The notes under the pieces: model-generated
The model's input: only the letters and a program-made list of their open reading frames with translations
Database searches by the model: none
Told to the model about the DNA's origin: nothing
NCBI GenBank assembly: GCA_965223155.1
Contig: CBDCVR010000013.1
Location: 896,001 to 960,000 of the forward strand
Direction of reading: 5' to 3'
From: Candidatus Multivoradales bacterium
Lineage (GTDB): Bacteria > Acidobacteriota > Thermoanaerobaculia > Multivoradales > JAHEKO01
Length of the DNA stretch: 64,000 bases
Made by a program: the position numbers and the translations under genes
Shown here: positions 3,619-13,407 of the stretch, piece after piece
How the letters are laid out: every line of letters begins with the position of its first letter
Numbering within the stretch: position 1 is the stretch's first letter

Positions 3619-5067
3619 ATGACCGAATATGACTTCCGCCAGTTCTACATCAACGGCGCCTGGGTCGAGCCGGCCGAGCCCAACGACTTCGCCGTCATCA
3701 ACCCCGCGACCGAAGAGCCTGTCGGCACCATCTCTCTAGGCGGCGAGCAAGACGTCGATCGAGCCGTGGCCGCGGCGCGGCAGGCGTTTCCCGAGTTCAG
3801 CTCCACGACCCGTACCCAGCGGATCGAGCTCATGGAGGCCATCCTCGCCGTCTACGCCACCCGCCACGACGAGATCGCGCGGGCGATCACCGAGGAGATG
3901 GGCGCGCCCTTCGCGATGTCCAAACGATCCCAAGCGGCGATGACCGTCAAGCACTTCACGACGACCCTCGATGCCCTGCGGACGTTCGAGTTCGAAGAGC
4001 ACCACGGCACGACCTCCGTCGTCCGCGAGCCCATCGGCGTCTGCGGCCTCATCACGCCCTGGAATTGGCCGATGAACCAGATCGCCTGCAAGGTGGCGCC
4101 GGCGCTAGCAGCCGGTTGCACCATCGTCCTCAAGCCTTCGGAGCTGTCGGCTCTGTCGGCCTGCCTCTTCGCCGAGGTCCTGGACGCGGCCGGCGTGCCG
4201 GCGGGCGTCTTCAACCTTGTCAACGGCGACGGCCCCACCGTGGGCGCCGCCATCGCCGCCCACGCGGAGGTGGATCTGGTCTCCTTCACCGGCTCGACGC
4301 GGGCCGGGATCCAGGTCGCTCTCAACGCGGCGCCGACGGTCAAGCGGGTGGCCCAGGAACTGGGCGGCAAGTCCGCCAACATCCTGCTCGACGACGCCGA
4401 CTTCGAGAAGGCCGTGGCCTCGGGCGTCAACCACTGCATGGGCAACTCCGGTCAATCCTGCAACGCCCCGACCCGGATGCTGGTCCCGGTCGAACGGCAG
4501 GCCGAGGCCGCAGAGATCGCCGCCCGCGCCGCCCGAAAGATCAAGGTGGGCGACCCTCATGCCGAAGACACCGTCATTGGCCCGGTGGCCAGCCGCGGTC
4601 AGTGGGAGCGCATTCAGGCACTTCTCGAAGCGGGTATCGCCGAAGGCGCCGAGCTCGTCACCGGCGGTCCTGGCCGCCCCGACGGGCTCGACAAGGGCTT
4701 CTACGTGCGGCCCACGGTCTTTGCCGGCGTCACCAACGACATGGTGATCGCGCGCGAAGAGATCTTCGGCCCGGTGCTCTCGATCCTGCCCTACGACGGC
4801 GAAGAGCAAGCCATTCGCATCGCCAACGACAGTCCCTACGGTCTTTCCGGATACGTTCACTCGGCCGACCACGAGCGGGCCCGCCGCGTTGCCCGGCGCA
4901 TCCGGACCGGCATGGTCCACGTCAACGGCGCACCCAACGACTACACCGCCCCGTTCGGCGGCTACAAACAGTCGGGTAACGGCAGAGAGTGGGGCGCCCA
5001 CGGCCTCGAAGAATTCCTCGAGACCAAAGCCATCATCGGCGACCGGCCGAAAGCGGCGAGCGGCTAG
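3619..5067 (+). CDS. Aldehyde dehydrogenase family protein
   Basis: ITPWNWP, KPSE, SFTGST, ELGGKS, GQSCNAP (catalytic Cys), EEIFGPV, PFGGYKQSG. Confidence 0.97.
   Translation: MTEYDFRQFYINGAWVEPAEPNDFAVINPATEEPVGTISLGGEQDVDRAVAAARQAFPEFSSTTRTQRIELMEAILAVYATRHDEIARAITEEMGAPFAMSKRSQAAMTVKHFTTTLDALRTFEFEEHHGTTSVVREPIGVCGLITPWNWPMNQIACKVAPALAAGCTIVLKPSELSALSACLFAEVLDAAGVPAGVFNLVNGDGPTVGAAIAAHAEVDLVSFTGSTRAGIQVALNAAPTVKRVAQELGGKSANILLDDADFEKAVASGVNHCMGNSGQSCNAPTRMLVPVERQAEAAEIAARAARKIKVGDPHAEDTVIGPVASRGQWERIQALLEAGIAEGAELVTGGPGRPDGLDKGFYVRPTVFAGVTNDMVIAREEIFGPVLSILPYDGEEQAIRIANDSPYGLSGYVHSADHERARRVARRIRTGMVHVNGAPNDYTAPFGGYKQSGNGREWGAHGLEEFLETKAIIGDRPKAASG
5031..5066 (+). repeat. 36-bp direct repeat, copy 1 (3' end of the ALDH gene)
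   Basis: CATCATCGGCGACCGGCCGAAAGCGGCGAGCGGCTA; 35/36 identical to 6227-6262. Confidence 0.92.
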
Positions 5068-5162
5068 AGCACGGCATAGCTAGTCGAGACGAGAACGTCG
5101 TCGGGACAATCTGCTGTGAAGATCGAGAAATTCTCCACCCACTACCGGGTGATCCCCTCGTC

Positions 5163-6212
5163 ATGAGCGTTCAGTATCTGTCTCAGCCCAAGCCGGACCG
5201 CACCTTCACTCTGGAGGAGCTCCGCCACCTCACCGGAGCCCTCGACGGGACCGTTCCGGGAGGTTTCAACGATACCTTCCCTAGCCACGCCATGACCACG
5301 ATCTCCGGCGACGGGCACGACACGCTGCCCTCCCTGGCACTGCCATCCAGCCTGGAAATCGACTCCATCTCAATCGCCAGCGGAAGGATACGCGACTTGG
5401 CTCCGGGGGACCTGGCCCGCCGTCTCTTGGAAACCGTACCCGGGCATTGGGACCCGCGGTTCTTCCCCTTGATTGCGGCAGACTGCACTTTGGATTCAGC
5501 GCGGCTCGACCCTGACCATCCCCAGGCGCTGATGGTGCGCCCAGGAGCTGCAACCCCTAACACAACGCTTCACTTCCTCTACGCTTCTTCCCCCGCCACG
5601 ACCGAGCGCGGCCGATGGTACGACGTTGTGTCCCAAAGAATGGACTTGCCCTGGCGCGTCGTGTGGGGCGAGGGCGGCAGTTTCACTATCAAAGCCACGA
5701 GCGAGCTCGAAATCCGAGTTCACCCTGACGTCGAGCCCACAATGGTGACATGGCCCATTCCCGATCTCGAGCTTCGGGAAATACCGCTATTTTTCCACCG
5801 GTTTCTCGAAGCCATTCCATCCGCGCAGGTCTTCGAAACTCAGTGGGCCGTATACCGCCTGGGCAACTTTCCGGGCGTACTTAGTATCTACTACGATCTG
5901 CTCGCGCTGCAATGGCCGATCGGGTCGGAGGGATCCCGCCTCTACCTGAGCGGTAACCTCGGACGATTCGAGGATCTCGACGAGTTTCGCGCCCTGCCCT
6001 CCGGCATTGCAGCCGAGACCTGGATCGGCAGCTGCACCAGTTTCCTCGACCCCGAGAGCTTCGAGGTCGAACCGGGCCACTTCGGCTACTGCCGCCTTCT
6101 CGTTCTGACCGACGGCGATGGGCACCGCCTGCGGGTCGAGGGCCAGCATGAAGAGGGTGCCGAGCACTTGTACGCTGCCTTGGGGCTCGACTGGGAAGGA
6201 CGATACAGCTAG
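5163..6212 (+). CDS. Hypothetical protein (349 aa), orphan cargo between the direct repeats
   Basis: Long open frame with globular, W/F-rich composition from ATG 5163; no motif recognised. Confidence 0.75.
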   Translation: MSVQYLSQPKPDRTFTLEELRHLTGALDGTVPGGFNDTFPSHAMTTISGDGHDTLPSLALPSSLEIDSISIASGRIRDLAPGDLARRLLETVPGHWDPRFFPLIAADCTLDSARLDPDHPQALMVRPGAATPNTTLHFLYASSPATTERGRWYDVVSQRMDLPWRVVWGEGGSFTIKATSELEIRVHPDVEPTMVTWPIPDLELREIPLFFHRFLEAIPSAQVFETQWAVYRLGNFPGVLSIYYDLLALQWPIGSEGSRLYLSGNLGRFEDLDEFRALPSGIAAETWIGSCTSFLDPESFEVEPGHFGYCRLLVLTDGDGHRLRVEGQHEEGAEHLYAALGLDWEGRYS

Positions 6213-6226
6213 ATGGTCCCAAACCG

Positions 6227-6262
6227 CATCATCGGCGACCGGCCGAAGGCGGCGAGCGGCTA
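6227..6262 (+). repeat. 36-bp direct repeat, copy 2 (displaced ALDH 3' end, ending in TAA)
   Basis: CATCATCGGCGACCGGCCGAAGGCGGCGAGCGGCTA(A); the one mismatch is synonymous (AAA/AAG) and the stop is TAA versus TAG. Confidence 0.92.
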
Positions 6263-6389
6263 AGCGGGCAACGAATCAGGAAACCTACCCGTCATCAGGC
6301 CTTGAGCCTTCGAATCCAAGAGCTCTCACGGCACGGCCTCCCCGAACGACATGGCAACCGACAGCCAAGGCTGGTAGCTTCCGGAAGTC

Positions 6390-7514
6390 ATGACGAACGC
6401 CTTCACGTTTTCCGACACGCCCTATCCGATACGCGACGATCTCGTCGCCGCGTATCGCAACTTCTGGCGCCAGTTGGCGGATCCCGGCACCTGGTGGACC
6501 GGCGAGGAACGGGTGGCGATCGCCGAGGCAGTGCGCTCGGCCAGCCACTGTGCGTTCTGCGCCGAACGAAAGACTGCCTTGTCTCCGTATGGACTCGCTG
6601 GCGAGCACGACGCCGCCCCCGACTCGCCTTTGGACGCGACTACTATCGATGCCGTGCACCGAGTCGTCACCGACCAGACGCGCATTACGAAGTCCTGGAT
6701 CCAAGACAACGCGGCGAATGGCCTGTCGGAGGGAAAGTACGTCGAGCTGGTTGGCGTAGCTGTCTGCGTTCTCGGCATCGATGAGTTTTGCCGTTCGCTC
6801 GGATTGCCGCTCGAGCCCTTGCCAGCGGCGATCGACGGCCAACCAACCGAATACGTGCCGGACGGTCTGGAAAGCGAGACAGCCATGGTGTCGGTGATCG
6901 GCGCCGACAAGCTCGGACCGGCGGAAAGTGACCTGTGGCCGCCAAACGGAACGGCCAATGTCATTCGCGCGCTCAGCCAGGTGCCCGACGCGGTCAGGCA
7001 GTGGGTTGCCCTGAGTGAGGCCCAGTATCTGGCGGCCGGCGATGTGGGCAACCCCGCCGCCGACACGAATCGCGCGCTCAACCGCATGCAGATGGAACTC
7101 GTCGCGGGGCGCGTGTCTTCGTCGAATGAGTGCTTCTACTGAACCGCCTCGCACGCAACGCTGCTCCGTGCGAGCGCGCAGATCCATGACACCGTTGCGG
7201 ACCTGCAGCAGGTTCACGGCGGAGCCAGTGAGACCAGCGAGATCGAACTCTCGAACGAGTTGACCTCGTTCGCGACGGCGGTTGTCGGCCAAGACGAAGC
7301 GGCCTTGGCCGAAAGCCGCGAGCGACTACTCGCCGCTTCGAACGCCCAAGTGCTGGTCGATGCCGCAGCCGTTGCCGCGAATTTTCAACGTCTGGTGCGG
7401 ATCGCCGACACGATCGGCATCCCGCTTGACGAGGACTTCGCGCGGATGGCCGAACCTGCGGTCGCCGGCCTCGAGCTGCGCCGCTTCAGGACCGCGGAAC
7501 ATACGCCTGGATAA
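6390..7514 (+). CDS. AhpD/CMD-like alkylhydroperoxidase-related selenoprotein (374 aa; Sec at TGA 7140-7142)
   Basis: ORFs 6390-7142 and 7260-7514 are in the same frame with only TGA 7140 between them. Read-through gives ELVAGRVSSSNECFYUTASHATLL, the AhpD E...CxxC-x3-H motif with U as the second residue. A second CxxC (HCAFC) lies near the N-terminus. Hairpin directly after the TGA; ends at TAA 7512-7514. Confidence 0.88.
7148..7174 (+). promoter_or_regulatory. Putative bacterial SECIS hairpin
   Basis: CTCGCACG-caacgctgctc-CGTGCGAG: perfect 8-bp stem starting 5 nt after the in-frame UGA; identical in the second gene copy. Confidence 0.75.
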
Positions 7515-7661
7515 GGGGCCTCGGACTCTGGTCTCGGCGGCAGCTTGAAGGCGGCGAGTCCCTAGTGAGACGGCGGTCGCCGCAACGACCTCCTCCCCAC
7601 GGTTCGATTCAGCGATCCGCCAAGTACCGATTCGCCACCCTCGCGTGCGCTCGCGACGGAC

Positions 7662-8576
7662 TCAAGGAGCGTCTGGAAGAGAAGCAAGAAACTCCTCGAG
7701 AGCCTGATTGAACCGCTCCGGCTCATCCACGAAGGCCGCGTGGCCGGAATCCTCGACCACCGCCCCGCGACCTTGCGGCCAGCGCTCGCTGACTCCTTCG
7801 GCAATTGCCCTTGCCCACTCTTGCGACGAAGCCAGATACAAGAACGGTAGTTCCATCTCATCCAAGACCGGGCGCCAGTCGCGTTCCTCGATCAGCATCA
7901 GGTTGGCGAGAAGGGTCACCGCGGTGTTGGTGGGTATCTGCATCACCGCCTCGACCAAGTCCTCGAGGTACTCCTCCGAGGGCTCGCTCGCGTGGAGGGC
8001 GCGAACCCACTTCTCCGTCCACTTGAGCCGATCCGACTGCATACTCTTCATCCAACCGCTCCAGAAGGGCGTAGCTGGATGCGGCTCCTCGAGGGGGGCG
8101 TCAAATCCAAGACTCATGTCCACCAGGACCAGGGCACGGAACGAATCGACTCCGAACTCGCGCACATGGGTCAGCGTTTCCAAGACCCCTAGCGACCACG
8201 CGACGACCACCGCCTGCTCCTCCCCCAAGTGCTCGATCAGTTCGCCGATATCTTGGCCTCTGCGGACCAGATGGTGTCCGTCGGTTACCTTTTCGGACCG
8301 CCCCTGGGATCGCGGATCCAGAGCCACGGCGCGATGGGTTTGCGCGAAATGACGCAACTGCGCCATCCACACCTCCGCCGGCATCAAGTAGCCGGGGACG
8401 AACACGATCGTCGGTCCCGAACCCGCCTCCAGGTAGTGCAGTCTGGCGGCATCGCTGGTCAAGAAGTAGCGAGAGTGAATCTCCTCTTGCGCCTGCGCCT
8501 TGGCCTGCGCCGGCGGTGCGACAGCCACGCTCACAGCGATCAGCAATGTGCCGAGCCCGGCTCCATGCAGTTTCAT
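7662..8576 (-). CDS. Secreted alpha/beta hydrolase (non-heme chloroperoxidase-like)
   Basis: Signal peptide; FVPGY, DPRSQGRS, AWSLG nucleophile elbow, SGHAAF catalytic His. Confidence 0.9.
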   Translation of the reverse strand: MKLHGAGLGTLLIAVSVAVAPPAQAKAQAQEEIHSRYFLTSDAARLHYLEAGSGPTIVFVPGYLMPAEVWMAQLRHFAQTHRAVALDPRSQGRSEKVTDGHHLVRRGQDIGELIEHLGEEQAVVVAWSLGVLETLTHVREFGVDSFRALVLVDMSLGFDAPLEEPHPATPFWSGWMKSMQSDRLKWTEKWVRALHASEPSEEYLEDLVEAVMQIPTNTAVTLLANLMLIEERDWRPVLDEMELPFLYLASSQEWARAIAEGVSERWPQGRGAVVEDSGHAAFVDEPERFNQALEEFLASLPDAP

Positions 8577-8652: not shown

Positions 8653-9282
8653 CTAGACGACCTCGGGCCAGAAGTACTTGACTCCAGATACCGGCAAGAT
8701 CGGTTCGCGAGCGAGCGTCATGAGGTCGGTCTTCCAGACACCCGAGAAGCCCTGCCACGCGGCGATGGCGGAGAGCGCCGCGTCCCACTCGTGCTCGTTG
8801 GCGGCAGTCACCGAGACTTCGAACTCGGCCTCCAACCAATCTGTCATCGCGCGCCGGCTCCCCCAGTCGTATTTCGTGCCCGCGAGGGCGAAATACACGA
8901 CCTTGGGATGAGTCTCCGTCACCTCCAAGTCCGGCCAGTGACGGCGCAAGGCCAGGACCACGGCCGGCCCCTGAATCGCCATGGATCCGAACAGGCTGTT
9001 GGGACTCGATACGGAGTTTCTGACCTCAGGGTACCGCTCGCGCAGCGCCAGATCCGCTCCCCGCCAGCCCGACGGGCCGAGCTCCCAACTCAGAATCGTA
9101 TCGACCCCGATGGCTCGCGGCGGACTCGCGCAGCGCTCACGAAACCAGCCGATCGCCGCCCGGCCGTCACTCGCCGTGCCGACTTCCAACCTGCGCGTCG
9201 AGGAACCAACCGTCAGCGCCGCAACGCCATGCTTGCCATTGCCGCCCGGGTCGTAGCCGAGAAAGACTAGAGCCAGCAGCAT
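8653..9282 (-). CDS. DUF429-family predicted nuclease (RNase H-like fold)
   Basis: FLGYDPGG, IGVDTIL, R.AD..LR, ETHPK, HEWDAALSA motif set. Start set at ATG 9282. Confidence 0.8.
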   Translation of the reverse strand: MLLALVFLGYDPGGNGKHGVAALTVGSSTRRLEVGTASDGRAAIGWFRERCASPPRAIGVDTILSWELGPSGWRGADLALRERYPEVRNSVSSPNSLFGSMAIQGPAVVLALRRHWPDLEVTETHPKVVYFALAGTKYDWGSRRAMTDWLEAEFEVSVTAANEHEWDAALSAIAAWQGFSGVWKTDLMTLAREPILPVSGVKYFWPEVV

Positions 9283-9319
9283 CTGCGCGAAACGCGGCTG
9301 GCCCGTCCCGTCACAGAAC

Positions 9320-10003
9320 TCAACAGCCCAGCGCCATCTCGATGGTGACCGTCTGGACAGGAAGCCAAGCGCCCGATTCCCAACGCACCAGGCGCACCCG
9401 ATAGACATTCACCAAAACGGCAGCGGGATAGTCGTCGGGAGCCGTTGCCGCCGCGGCGTGATCGGCCCAGTCGTCTCCGGCAACCTCCCGCACTCGCTCC
9501 ACCAGCTCGGCCATATCGACCTCCGGGAAACGGCGCGCTTGCTCTGGGCTCAGCGCAGGCAACACGAATCGTCCCTCGTCTTGCTCGAGCGTCCGCCACT
9601 CGGACGTGAAGTGCTTCCAATCCGTGAGGTCGATGTGCGGGCCCTCACCGAGTATCGAGACAGTCGTCTCATACTGCCACTCCAGTCGAAACTCGCCGAG
9701 ACAGTCCTCTTCGTCCGCGATGAGGATCTCCCATCCTGCAACGTCCGCCATCCCGACGGAGACGTACGCTTCGGCATCGGGCGGAATCATGAACGCCTCT
9801 TCGGGATTGTCGATGTAGCCGGTGCTCAACGATTCCGGATCCGGCTCGAGCTTCAGACTCGGTTGGCACTCAGAAGTCGCCATTCCGGCACTTGCGGTGC
9901 CCATCACGAGCAAGGCAAGAACGGTGCTCGCCAGACGTGGCAGTCGCGAATCGCGCCCACAGCCCTCCTTGGTTGCTACCTCCGAGCGGTTTACTCCATA
10001 CAT
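9320..10003 (-). CDS. Hypothetical exported acidic protein
   Basis: Hydrophobic signal-like segment followed by an acidic domain (QYETTVSILGEGPHIDLTDWKHFTSEW), C-terminal GC. Start uncertain (10003 or 10036). Confidence 0.7.
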   Translation of the reverse strand: MYGVNRSEVATKEGCGRDSRLPRLASTVLALLVMGTASAGMATSECQPSLKLEPDPESLSTGYIDNPEEAFMIPPDAEAYVSVGMADVAGWEILIADEEDCLGEFRLEWQYETTVSILGEGPHIDLTDWKHFTSEWRTLEQDEGRFVLPALSPEQARRFPEVDMAELVERVREVAGDDWADHAAAATAPDDYPAAVLVNVYRVRLVRWESGAWLPVQTVTIEMALGC

Positions 10004-10233: not shown

Positions 10234-11634
10234 TTACGCCGAGTTGACCGCTCCTTCCGAACCCTCGGGCTCCCGCCGCAGTGCCCGATAGGCCTGAACC
10301 GCCCAGGCGAGATCGATCGACCTGCCGTTCCAGGTCGGAAAGCCCGTCATCGCATCGACCTCGATCCCGCGCTCGGCGTTCTGAGACCGGATTGCTTCGC
10401 CGGGCCGCGCCGGCAACGGTGGCGGGGCCGGCGCTTCTTCGATCCGAAGTCCATTTGGCGTAAAGAAATCGACTGAACCGCTGCGGTGCAAGAGCACCTT
10501 GAAGCCCTCTTCGTGGACGGCTCGATGGTGGCGGCGGCAGAGGAGAACCAGGTTGTCGAGGCGTGTGGCGCCGCCGTCGGCCCAATGTTTGACATGGTGG
10601 GCGTCGCAAATCCTGACGCCACAACCAGGGAAGCGACAGCCTCGGTCCCGAAAACGTAGAGCTCGGCGGACAGCGGGAGGCACGGTGCGCGTTTTCCGCC
10701 CGACGTCGAGGGTCGAACCGTCACGAGCGTGGCGCATGTCCCCCTTCGAAGCATCGCAGGCGAGACGGCGGGACGTTTCCGCGGAAACGTTCGTGCCGCC
10801 CTCGACAACCGCGTGGCCGGAGTCCGAGCGATCCGCCAAGGCCTCGGCGTCAACGTGCACGACCACCTGGTGGTGGTCACCGCCGGTCGTCGCGTCGGCG
10901 CCGCCCAGCCCGCGACCGAGCGCGGCTTCGGCAACCAGGCCAAAGGCGTCGGCACGCCGCCTCTCGGCACCGCGCTCGCCTTCCTCGACCGTCGCGGCGT
11001 CCTCAGCCTCTGAGTCCGAGCGATAGAGCTTGTCCTCGGCGGCTTCGAGCGCCTTCAAGAACATCGCCCCGGCTTCCGGTTCGAGCCGAGCGCGGACCAC
11101 CCGCATGCCGTCTTCGTCGGTGTAGGCGCGCACGTACCGCTGGCTCCGCCGACGCTTGGAGACTTCCGCCTCCTCCAGCCGGTCCATGCGGCGCCAGGCA
11201 CGAATCAGTCGTTCGACGTGCGAGGCCGTACCCGCTCGGGCAAAGGTTAAGAGCTCCGCCTCATTCTCGGTGGTGGCAACACGCGTCAGGGCGCGCACCT
11301 TCGAGTACGAGATCTCGCCGCGCTCCATCGCCGCACCGATCTTCGGGAGATTCCCGAGGGCCCGCGCCACCCGGACCTTTTCGCGAGCCGCACCCAGGTC
11401 CAGGCCCGTACGCCATGAGAGCCAGTGCGCACAGGAACGAGCACCCTTGGCGTGCCAACCCTCGCGCCGGTCGAACTCCCGAATCAGAGTGAGTACGCGA
11501 TACGTGGCGGCCTGAATCTGAGCCGAGAGCTCGGCGATCCGATCCCCTATCTGGTCGAGATCGCCCGCGGCCTCGAACGGTTCGTCTGCGGAACTGGCGG
11601 TGACTCGTTGCGGTGCGGAAGCGGCGAAGTTCAT
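10234..11634 (-). CDS. DUF222 (13E12 repeat family) HNH endonuclease
   Basis: SCAHWLSWRTGL, GEISYSKVRA, RRADA, RRLACD, DVGRKTR, RDRGCRFPGC, DAHHVKHWADGGATRLDNLVLLCRRHH. Confidence 0.95.
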   Translation of the reverse strand: MNFAASAPQRVTASSADEPFEAAGDLDQIGDRIAELSAQIQAATYRVLTLIREFDRREGWHAKGARSCAHWLSWRTGLDLGAAREKVRVARALGNLPKIGAAMERGEISYSKVRALTRVATTENEAELLTFARAGTASHVERLIRAWRRMDRLEEAEVSKRRRSQRYVRAYTDEDGMRVVRARLEPEAGAMFLKALEAAEDKLYRSDSEAEDAATVEEGERGAERRRADAFGLVAEAALGRGLGGADATTGGDHHQVVVHVDAEALADRSDSGHAVVEGGTNVSAETSRRLACDASKGDMRHARDGSTLDVGRKTRTVPPAVRRALRFRDRGCRFPGCGVRICDAHHVKHWADGGATRLDNLVLLCRRHHRAVHEEGFKVLLHRSGSVDFFTPNGLRIEEAPAPPPLPARPGEAIRSQNAERGIEVDAMTGFPTWNGRSIDLAWAVQAYRALRREPEGSEGAVNSA

Positions 11635-11760: not shown

Positions 11761-12429
11761 GCTAGCCACTGTGCGTTCTGCGCCGAACGAAAGACTGCCT
11801 TGTCTCCGTATGGCCTGGCCGGCGAGCACGACGCCTCCCCCGACTCGCCTCTGGAGGCGACTGCCATCGATGCCGTGCACCGAGTCGTCACCGACCAGAC
11901 GCGCATTACGAAGTCCTGGATCCAGGAGAACTCGGAGAGTGGCCTTGCGGAGGGGAAGTACGTCGAGCTGGTCGGCGTGGCCGTCTGCGTCTTCGGTATC
12001 GACGAGTTTTGCCGTTCGCTCGGATTGCCGCTCGAGCCCTTGCCCGCGGCGATCGACGGCCAACCAACCGAATACGTGCCGGCCGGTCTGGAAAGCGAGA
12101 CAGCCATAGTGTCGGTGATCGGCGCCGACAAGCTCGGACCGGCGGAAAGCGACCTATGGCCGCCAAACGAAACGGCCAATGTCATTCGCGCGCTCAGCCT
12201 GGTGCCCGACGCGGTCAGGGAATGGGTTGCCCTGAGTGAGGCGCAGTATCTGGCGGCCCACGATGTGGGCAACCCCGCCGCCGACACGAATCGCGCGCTC
12301 AACCGCATGCAGATGGAACTTGTCGCGGGGCGCGTGTCTTCGTCGAATGAGTGCTTCTACTGAACCGCCTCGCACGCAACGCTGCTCCGTGCGAGCGCGC
12401 AAATCCACGACACCGTCGCCGACCTCCAG
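11761..12429 (+). pseudogene. Diverged internal fragment (second copy) of the AhpD-like selenoprotein gene, truncated at both ends
   Basis: Colinear with 6540-7208 (offset 5221). Starts at ASHCAFC with no proper start, keeps TGA 12361-12363 and the hairpin at 12369-12395; homology stops after DLQ. Confidence 0.88.
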
Positions 12430-12594: not shown

Positions 12595-13407
12595 ATGCGA
12601 GTGACAAGAAATCTAAAGAAGAGTACTGCGAGTATCGCTGCACTGTGTGCAGTTCTATCCCCCGCAGCCGCCACCGCGCAGTCCACAGGACCCCGCACTC
12701 AGTTTGGCGCCGAAAGTTTCCACGAGAACCACAGTGCCACGGCGACATCCTTGACGACTTCGCGCGGCTTCTCCGTGGTCGTCGTCGAAGCACACGAGCA
12801 CGTTGGCGAAAAGCTATTCAACGACGCCATTCGAGTGAGCGTCAGCAGCCCCTGGGGAGAGCACTTCGAGGCCTACTTCGTAGATCACAGGAGCTTCAAG
12901 AGAATCCGAATCGTCGGAGTGGGAGAGTACAAGTTCTACCCCGGTCCAGAGGCGGGCCCTCTCACAACACCCATGGACTTCGTCTCGATCGAGACAGCTC
13001 AAGGTGTTCGAGGAGAGCACGTCGGCAACCGTGTAGAACGAGTGACCCATGGCCTGGAAACGATCGACAACATCGACCTGTACCAGGACATGGCGCTCGA
13101 GATCCACAAGAGCTTCTCGCCAGAATTCCTTGAGGGTCTTAGAGAGCTCAGCCGTCCCAGCCTCGTGCCGGCAGGCTGCAGTCTCGAGATACTGGAATGT
13201 TCTCTCGCGGTGATAGGGTGGATTGGAAGCGTAGCCGCTTTCGGACCGGCCTGTGTATATGGACTGACTCTGGGGTGTATCGCCGCGATCCTTGTCCATG
13301 AAGCTGCCAACGGCAGCGTCATCATCGCTTGCGGCAAAGCCGGCGCCTGCCTACAGGCAGAACAAGAGGAGGCTCAGCATCCCCGGACCAATCCGGACTG
13401 CGGATAG
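12595..13407 (+). CDS. Secreted precursor with a C-terminal hydrophobic 6-Cys domain (halocin C8/bacteriocin-like)
   Basis: GAGGAG RBS; Sec signal (...SPAAATA|Q); C-terminal region GCSLEILECSLAVIGWIGSVAAFGPACVYGLTLGCIAAILVHEAANGSVIIACGKAGACLQ; lower GC than the flanks. The CDS is solid, the function is inferred. Confidence 0.6.
   Translation: MRVTRNLKKSTASIAALCAVLSPAAATAQSTGPRTQFGAESFHENHSATATSLTTSRGFSVVVVEAHEHVGEKLFNDAIRVSVSSPWGEHFEAYFVDHRSFKRIRIVGVGEYKFYPGPEAGPLTTPMDFVSIETAQGVRGEHVGNRVERVTHGLETIDNIDLYQDMALEIHKSFSPEFLEGLRELSRPSLVPAGCSLEILECSLAVIGWIGSVAAFGPACVYGLTLGCIAAILVHEAANGSVIIACGKAGACLQAEQEEAQHPRTNPDCG

Follow-up and report, generated by a model that had tools for sequence, protein, structure and literature searches.

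The stretch of DNA analyzed here comprises 64,000 nucleotides (67% G+C) of contig CBDCVR010000013.1 from a Candidatus Multivoradales bacterium of the Acidobacteriota and is referred to as the window. At positions 6390–7514 of its plus strand lie what appear to be two open reading frames (ORFs) in the same frame, the first of which ends at a TGA codon. This upstream ORF (6390–7142) starts at an ATG at 6390, with the sequence GGAAG located 4 nt upstream, and reads ...GRVSSSNECFY before the TGA at 7140–7142; past the TGA the frame continues as TASHATLLRAS... and is free of stops until the TAA at 7512–7514, so that it contains the 84-amino-acid ORF obtained with translation table 11 at 7260–7514. 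Reading through the TGA yields a product of 374 amino acids with NECFY-U-TASHATLL across the junction (NECFY-TGA-TASH at 7125–7154), in which the TGA corresponds to residue 251. A first-pass annotation of the window, made from the letters alone, had proposed that ORFs 6390–7142 and 7260–7514 form one in-frame gene joined through this TGA, and the sequence and frame are as it described. We consider it very probable that the two apparent ORFs are a single gene encoding a selenocysteine (Sec)-containing, AhpD-related redox protein of the NCBIfam family NF041238.

The family assignment spans the junction. The read-through protein matches NF041238 with an E value of 2.3e-127 and 425.1 bits (cut-off 175), residues 14–367 aligning to positions 1–356 of the 357-position model, and both halves are collinear on it, the part preceding the TGA covering positions 1–238 and the part following it positions 240–356; the post-UGA part alone scores 104.8 bits. 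NF041238 is a model of the equivalog type whose name ('AhpD_rel_CFYUT, alkylhydroperoxidase-related (seleno)protein') refers to the CFYUT motif. A table in a review of 2026 (PMC13188914) equates it with the Sargasso Sea 'hypothetical protein 1', a CxxU protein, and the Sargasso Sea selenoproteome study describes this protein as four sequences with a conserved CXXU and a predicted selenocysteine insertion sequence (SECIS) (Zhang, Fomenko & Gladyshev 2005, PMC1088965). The gene in the window shares with this family a full-length equivalog match, CFYUT with UGA, a length of ~360–410 amino acids and the CxxU, and differs in nothing of substance; it is a member whose host's close relatives mostly lack the family. 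The description of the gene as hidden is therefore not one that we can retain, given a curated NCBI model named for the very motif and a paper dating from 2005. Because the family has been known since that year and is curated by NCBI, we regard the read-through gene as an ordinary member of a published selenoprotein family and as nothing new in kind.

When one genome per species was scanned, 17 related loci were obtained, one of which (L037) ends before the UGA site. The aligned column is TGA in all 16 loci that reach it, and never TAA or TAG, flanked by ...N-x-C-[FYLV]-[YF] on the one side and [TL]-x-x-H on the other. These 16 loci span five phyla; their record titles place the related loci in Woeseiaceae, Pseudomonadales, Hyphomicrobiaceae, Rhizobiales, Reyranella, Parasphingorhabdus, Myxococcota, Acidimicrobiia and Chthoniobacterales, with Gamma- and Alphaproteobacteria among them. 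Four further copies of the family also carry the TGA, namely the second copies in L021 and L022, L039, and a gene fragment elsewhere in the window. Beyond the TGA the frame remains open for 114–149 codons in the related loci (one of them runs off its contig), and H255, L259, L291, A297, D340, G343 and P345 are invariant in all 17 aligned sequences. Solved AhpD-type proteins have cysteine at this column (6k40, ...NRCVYCAVSH...; 3c1l, ...NHCYYCLTAH...), which places the UGA on the second catalytic Cys of an E-x11-C-x-x-C-x3-H signature, exactly as had been proposed. Judged on these sequences, the recurrence of an in-frame TGA is far beyond chance. It had also been held that homologues stopping at CFY with TAA or TAG would speak against read-through; none was seen among the 16 loci, and the protein is conserved on both sides of the UGA, the downstream segment included.

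The proposal that gene callers split this gene is borne out by its database relatives. Among the 120 best, 116 cover only 66–67% of the query and are therefore taken to have been cut at the UGA. The 150 best representatives of clusters at 50% identity include 96 that end in C-x-[YFW] and 24 that are full-length with C at the site, the rest being fragments or degenerate forms; because the search tool prints U as C, these 24 'Cys' representatives may include a few annotated as Sec forms. The family is thus still often cut at the UGA, and the practical value for annotation is that the gene be recorded as one 374-amino-acid selenoprotein rather than as two ORFs. Of the 120 best word-search matches, P0042 alone is full-length; it carries the NCBI name 'alkylhydroperoxidase-related (seleno)protein' and is printed with CFYVT, the V at the Sec position being either a real valine or an artefact of how U is stored.

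The genome itself (4.0 Mb in 15 contigs, 98.7% complete) encodes the complete machinery for Sec, which had been named as a point to be checked: selD (253 bits), selA (455 bits) and selB (325 bits) all score above their cut-offs, and a selC tRNA-Sec (73 bits) with anticodon TCA, as called by ARAGORN, is also present. The SelD protein (L001 1390–3738, minus strand, on contig G000:C15) is a 782-amino-acid fusion of an N-terminal pyridine nucleotide-disulphide oxidoreductase (Pyr_redox_2) to selenophosphate synthetase, with a CGGC motif where the SelD part begins. It is of the same type as the Ndh-SelD fusion mentioned in the Global Ocean Sampling (GOS) paper (PMC2398784).

Two readings in which no Sec is inserted were weighed against these data, and both are very unlikely. 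If the TGA were a true stop, the locus would be a nonsense pseudogene or two genes encoding proteins of 250 and 84 amino acids, which is exactly what ORF callers using table 11 deliver, and a 250-residue product is indeed likely to arise as a by-product whenever Sec insertion fails. This account, to which we assign only a very small probability, is opposed by the occurrence of TGA, and never of TAA or TAG, throughout the 16 loci, which represent five phyla, by a downstream frame that is open and conserved with an invariant H255, by a single curated hidden Markov model that spans the junction, by an AlphaFold2 model in which the helices following the UGA are packed into the C-terminal domain, and by the presence of the Sec machinery in the genome. 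The other possibility is that no selenium is involved and the UGA is read as Trp, Cys or Gly, whether by near-cognate decoding or because the code is altered. Nothing specific speaks in its favour, and although Cys can take the place of Sec in some systems when selenium is scarce, TGA ordinarily acts as a stop in the window, where it ends 23 of the 50 open frames of at least 350 codons and also the alpha/beta-hydrolase ORF at 7662–8576; furthermore, a conserved SECIS-type hairpin and selABCD fit Sec decoding and would be needless for a changed code. We regard this possibility as extremely remote.

The question of which RNA element would direct Sec insertion has an answer that differs from the one first given. 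The first-pass annotation pointed to a perfect 8-bp inverted repeat that starts 5 nt past the TGA (CTCGCACG at 7148–7155 and CGTGCGAG at 7167–7174, with the loop CAACGCTGCTC), and took the resulting hairpin (7148–7174) to be a SECIS, possibly of a lineage-specific form. The hairpin is real in the window sequence. The 64 nt at 7137–7200 fold to −20 kcal/mol, compared with −17.7 ± 2.7 kcal/mol for 200 shuffles, 38 of which fold at least as well (z = −0.83), so this stability is unremarkable for G+C-rich sequence. In an alignment of 69 nt around the UGA in 17 sequences (A1), the RNAalifold consensus places the conserved structure elsewhere, at columns 32–46, corresponding to window positions 7162–7176: (U)GCUC, a five-base loop and GAGC(G). 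Every one of the 17 sequences retains its pairs 34–44, 35–43 and 36–42, and 16 of them retain each of the next two, one of which is 33–45. The 3′ arm of the 8-bp hairpin is made up of the loop and 3′ arm of the conserved one, and the two are for this reason mutually exclusive.

The decisive evidence for the conserved hairpin, as far as sequence comparison can supply it, is the conservation of silent sites. At only 7 of the 345 aligned codon columns do at least 90% of the sequences agree in the third position: the TGA itself, the single Trp codon, an Asp codon and the four consecutive codons 258–261, whose third positions are identical in 16–17 of the 17 sequences. Leu259 is CTC in 17 of 17, codon 260 has T at its third position in 16 of 17, and codon 261, which encodes six different amino acids, always has G. 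A bulged U extends the conserved stem to 7159–7178 (CGC, the bulged U and GCUC, closed over the loop CGUGC by GAGC and GCG), giving 3 bp, the bulge and 4 bp with a folding energy of −8.8 kcal/mol. The lower-stem pairs alternate between GC, CG and AU among homologues, and the covariation score of this bulged model is 0.150 against a shuffle mean of 0.079, with none of 500 shuffles reaching it and all slid controls lower; with only 17 related sequences behind it, the covariation evidence is modest. The same hairpin is found in all four of the further family copies (the second copies in L021 and L022, L039 from a genome of the same order, and the window fragment), and seven small AhpD-like TGA genes of relatives have an equivalent hairpin, GACCUC-CGGGNN-GAGGUC, at the same distance from the UGA.

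The conserved hairpin also fits the published model of bacterial SECIS elements (bSECISearch), which, according to the legend of Fig. 2 in the review cited above (PMC13188914), calls for a loop of 3–9 nt, a UGA-to-loop distance of 16–37 nt, a minimum free energy (MFE) of at most −7.5 kcal/mol, and a G as the first or second base of the loop, as a rule with G or U after it. The element at 7159–7178 passes all four constraints, with an upper stem of at least 4 bp, a 5-nt loop in which G at position 2 is followed by U, a distance of 24 nt and −8.8 kcal/mol; loop, G and spacing agree with the model in 17 of 17 homologous hairpins. Its primary sequence is unlike that of the E. coli fdhF SECIS. A lineage-specific type of SECIS is consequently not needed, since an overlapping element already fits the published consensus, and we assign 7159–7178 as the putative SECIS of the family on the strength of its silent sites.

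The case for the 8-bp hairpin is that its stem is perfect, that it forms part of the MFE fold of this mRNA, and that its four inner pairs (columns 22–25 with 37–40) are kept in 12, 16, 17 and 13 of the 17 sequences. Its outer pairs are kept in just 13, 4 (19–43), 10 (20–42) and 6 (21–41), such that 66.9% of cells pair over the whole helix, and its inner pairs are lost in the four homologues whose loop reads (C)AGUU, three of which have an additional A-U pair in the small hairpin. The sequence of its 5′ arm follows from the S-H-A codons, it violates three constraints of the published model (an 11-nt loop starting with CA, no G in loop positions 1–2, and a spacing of 13 nt), and its stability is ordinary, as noted above. 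The comparison across homologues that had been suggested for the UGA region hence goes against this stem and gives modest support to the lower stem of 7159–7178. We conclude that the 8-bp hairpin is probably not the SECIS; that it functions as one, in a lineage-specific form, we hold to be distinctly improbable.

The protein is predicted to be built of two AhpD-like domains. AlphaFold2, run on the 17-sequence alignment, gives an all-helical model (predicted local distance difference test (pLDDT) 89.8, predicted template modelling score (pTM) 0.91) in which the post-UGA helices pack into the C-terminal domain with blocks of pLDDT 89–98 for residues 251–350. The best match of the whole model in the PDB is human Sestrin2 (5t0n; Z 17.1, root-mean-square deviation (rmsd) 3.5 over 243 aligned residues, model residues 1–345), followed by the D. 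radiodurans AhpD 6k40 (Z 14.9, rmsd 2.6 over 175 aligned residues, model residues 163–356); other single-domain AhpD-type proteins match the same region of ~163–356 (2oyo, Z 14.6; 2prr, Z 14.4), and M. tuberculosis AhpD gives Z 9.1. The catalytic signature E236...C248-F-Y-U251-T-A-S-H255 (7095–7154) belongs to this C-terminal domain. Without exception the 17 sequences have E236, C248, U251 (shown as C) and H255, with the spacing E-x11-C-x2-U-x3-H, and in 6k40 and 3c1l the two Cys and the His fall in the same columns. That the gene encodes a Sec-containing AhpD-like protein, as first proposed, agrees with the invariant signature and the predicted AhpD-type fold.

The N-terminal domain is less easily recognized. 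Its 158 residues, folded alone, reach a pLDDT of 90.8, and when this model was compared with 48,161 representative chains all eight chains with Z of at least 5 were AhpD, CMD or Sestrin folds, led by 2pfx (Z 9.3, rmsd 3.0 over 117 aligned residues), with the first match outside these eight at Z 4.5. Such Z values are common for helical proteins, and it is therefore the exclusive AhpD/CMD/Sestrin make-up of the top matches that carries the argument. A Pfam scan of this domain in 17 members gave three unrelated families with one member each (E 0.11–0.32), and its PDB profile matches are marginal (a chaperonin at E about 0.01 and 2oyo at E 0.25). Internal duplication was also sought by sequence: hhalign of the N- against the C-terminal domain (probability 4.3%, E 0.0096) aligned only their equivalent last helices and was rejected as not significant. 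In the model, a helix begins at residue 55, placing the motif C54-A-F-C57 (6549–6560) at the start of the helix equivalent to the one bearing the C-domain motif. On the predicted structures, then, the N-terminal domain is a second AhpD fold that has diverged, and the whole protein is predicted to be two fused AhpD-like domains with a Sestrin2-like architecture. The first-pass annotation had further described two redox centres. The N-terminal CxxC is indeed present in 14 of 17 homologues; it is missing in the other three (L033, L034 and L036), which are both Acidimicrobiia loci and the Chthoniobacterales locus, and it therefore cannot be essential to the family. Overall, the observation and the main inference of that annotation were correct, and its SECIS assignment and its generalization to two redox centres need correction.

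Beyond NF041238 itself, the closest known systems include the single-domain 'peroxidase-related' AhpD proteins (TIGR01926 / COG2128 type, including 6k40, 3c1l, 2pfx, 2oyo and 2prr) and the 'AhpD-like 1' CxxU selenoproteins of marine metagenomes. Residues ~163–356 share the fold of the former (Z 13.9–14.9), the homology of the C-terminal half to them is detectable by profile (E 3e-13 to 6e-8), the E...CxxC/U...H centre is common to both, and the Sec forms of relatives have their SECIS hairpin at the same place; the present protein differs in adding an N-terminal AhpD-like domain of ~140 amino acids and a linker of ~50. M. tuberculosis AhpD (1gu9/1knc), a characterized alkylhydroperoxidase that reduces AhpC, is of the same fold class (138 residues aligned), and its spacing, Glu-x11-Cys-x2-Cys-x3-His, equals that found here. 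It differs in that the sequence match is marginal (E 0.0083), in that Sec here replaces the second Cys and the protein has two domains, and in that no ahpC adjoins the window gene. Sestrin2 has the same two-domain arrangement, whereas identity to it is 9–10% and the active centre of the present protein lies in the C-terminal domain and uses Sec. The DDYDY motif, which a review of Sestrin ancestry (PMC11429811) places in an electronegative hinge of the sestrin C-domain, does not occur in the translation of the 374-residue protein. The same review already describes a fused architecture of two AhpD domains in bacteria, for example in E. coli YciW, whose overall two-domain arrangement is the same. 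At the sequence level the similarity to YciW is not significant, the alignments being weak though collinear (BLASTP E 0.071; hhalign probability 0.7%).

These comparisons suggest how the protein might be made and how it might work. By homology, the UGA at 7140–7142 would be decoded as Sec by SelB and Sec-tRNA(Sec), with SelB presumably recruited by the small hairpin at 7159–7178, which lies 16 nt past the UGA and has the apical loop CGUGC. By analogy with the thiol chemistry of AhpD, on which the proposed U251/C248 cycle is based, the selenolate of U251 would be the nucleophile that attacks a peroxide, sulfenic acid or disulfide substrate, and C248 would then resolve U251 into a selenenylsulfide to be recycled by a reductant. 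The CxxC of the N-terminal domain may serve as a second or relay centre. A bolder version of this scheme, which we put forward as speculative and rather unlikely, is that the family is a self-contained two-centre redox relay on a Sestrin-like pseudo-dimer of fused AhpD domains, in which the C248/U251 selenenylsulfide is recycled by the N-domain CxxC and the near-invariant SECIS core marks a single ancient origin of Sec. If it were true, this would be a selenium-dependent enzyme needing no AhpD-type partner and acting on a substrate other than AhpC, and the core GCUC-NGUNN-GAGC, near-invariant over five phyla and the small AhpD-like selenoproteins, would mark one Sec origin in the superfamily.

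A number of observations weigh against the interpretation of the locus as a Sec-decoding gene for an AhpD-related redox enzyme with its SECIS at 7159–7178. The accounts of the CFYUT family that we consulted contain no demonstration of selenium incorporation or enzymatic activity, and the ambiguity of the 24 'Cys' representatives mentioned above belongs here as well. At the level of protein families, the Pfam CMD family PF02627 falls below its gathering score (20.7 against 23 bits) and covers residues 227–261 only, although the likeness in fold is clear, and TIGR01926 is below its cut-off (35 against 81.8 bits) for the read-through protein. With respect to the hairpin, the conserved core is invariant and compensatory changes therefore cannot support it, leaving silent-site conservation and the modest covariation of the lower stem; only 11 of the 17 local hairpins reach the energy limit of −7.5 kcal/mol, and the MFE fold of this mRNA has the 8-bp stem, at −17.8 kcal/mol compared with −12.6 kcal/mol when the core is forced. 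An Rfam scan of 6300–7700 at E ≤ 10 returned four weak matches (14–19 bits, far below gathering) and no SECIS family. With respect to function, Pfam and NCBIfam scans of chosen ORFs between 1518 and 13407 revealed no peroxiredoxin, ahpC not having been searched for genome-wide, and the scanned loci show no conserved partner or operon neighbour that would point to a substrate or reductant.

Three points go beyond the published accounts that we found: conservation of silent sites locates the family's SECIS, the N-terminal CxxC is dispensable in some lineages, and the fold of 'hypothetical protein 1' is predicted to be a fused AhpD pair. The general picture of bacterial selenoproteins is unchanged by these additions.

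The family is sparsely distributed around its host. NF041238 scores above its cut-off in only 2 of 41 genomes (the window's own and 40 relatives, with the unpublished G005 counted among the negatives), these being the window's genome and G031 from the same order, and this patchy occurrence suggests horizontal spread. Small AhpD-like genes (~190 amino acids) with an in-frame TGA occur in nearly all 41 genomes searched; the window's genome has one as a second AhpD-like TGA gene (G000:C14:192020–192577, minus strand), and the versions of relatives are L040–L047. In two loci from metagenome-assembled genomes of Pseudomonadota, full CFYU genes stand in tandem (L021, 201–1391 and 1682–~2880; L022, 2992–4182 and 4473–~5672), each copy with its own TGA and hairpin.

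A truncated paralogous fragment of 669 bp lies in the window itself, on the plus strand at 11761–12429, 5.2 kb downstream of the gene. It is equivalent to 6540–7208 (codons 51–273), thus including the TGA and the putative SECIS, and is 93.7% identical over 669 nt without gaps; against NF041238 it scores 230.8 bits over model positions 38–238, both ends of the gene being missing. Gene and fragment differ in 39 codons, of which 24 are synonymous and 15 are not, with 28 of the 42 changes at third positions, and there are no differences at all in 7101–7180, around the UGA and the hairpin. Because the changes are mostly synonymous and at third positions, we conclude that the copy evolved as a functional gene until its truncation. 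It adjoins a DUF222/HNH gene on the minus strand (10234–11634).

Genomic context is shared by few of the loci: none of six proteins encoded near the gene in the window had a tblastn match at E ≤ 1e-5 in 18 related loci, and all-against-all clustering of ORFs of at least 120 amino acids found common neighbours just among the closely related L026, L028 and L029. In the Pfam and NCBIfam scans, the neighbours of the gene in the window are an aldehyde dehydrogenase (3619–5067), an alpha/beta hydrolase (7662–8576, minus strand), ORFs without a family at 4989–6212 and 12595–13407, and another such ORF at 8653–9408 with a sub-threshold DUF429 match (19.7 against 23 bits). An ORF of 335 amino acids antisense to the gene (6285–7292) has no NCBIfam match and was dismissed as a shadow of the high G+C content. 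Scans of 6100–7750 gave no promoter-like sites and a single terminator-like site, on the minus strand within the gene, which does not exceed shuffled sequences. A copy of the final ~44 nt of the aldehyde dehydrogenase gene (stop codon at 5065–5067), ~92% identical, lies just upstream of the selenoprotein gene, and the two repeats (5024–5070 and 6219–6265) bracket the family-less ORF at 4989–6212, an arrangement resembling the scar left by an insertion or rearrangement of ~1.2 kb.

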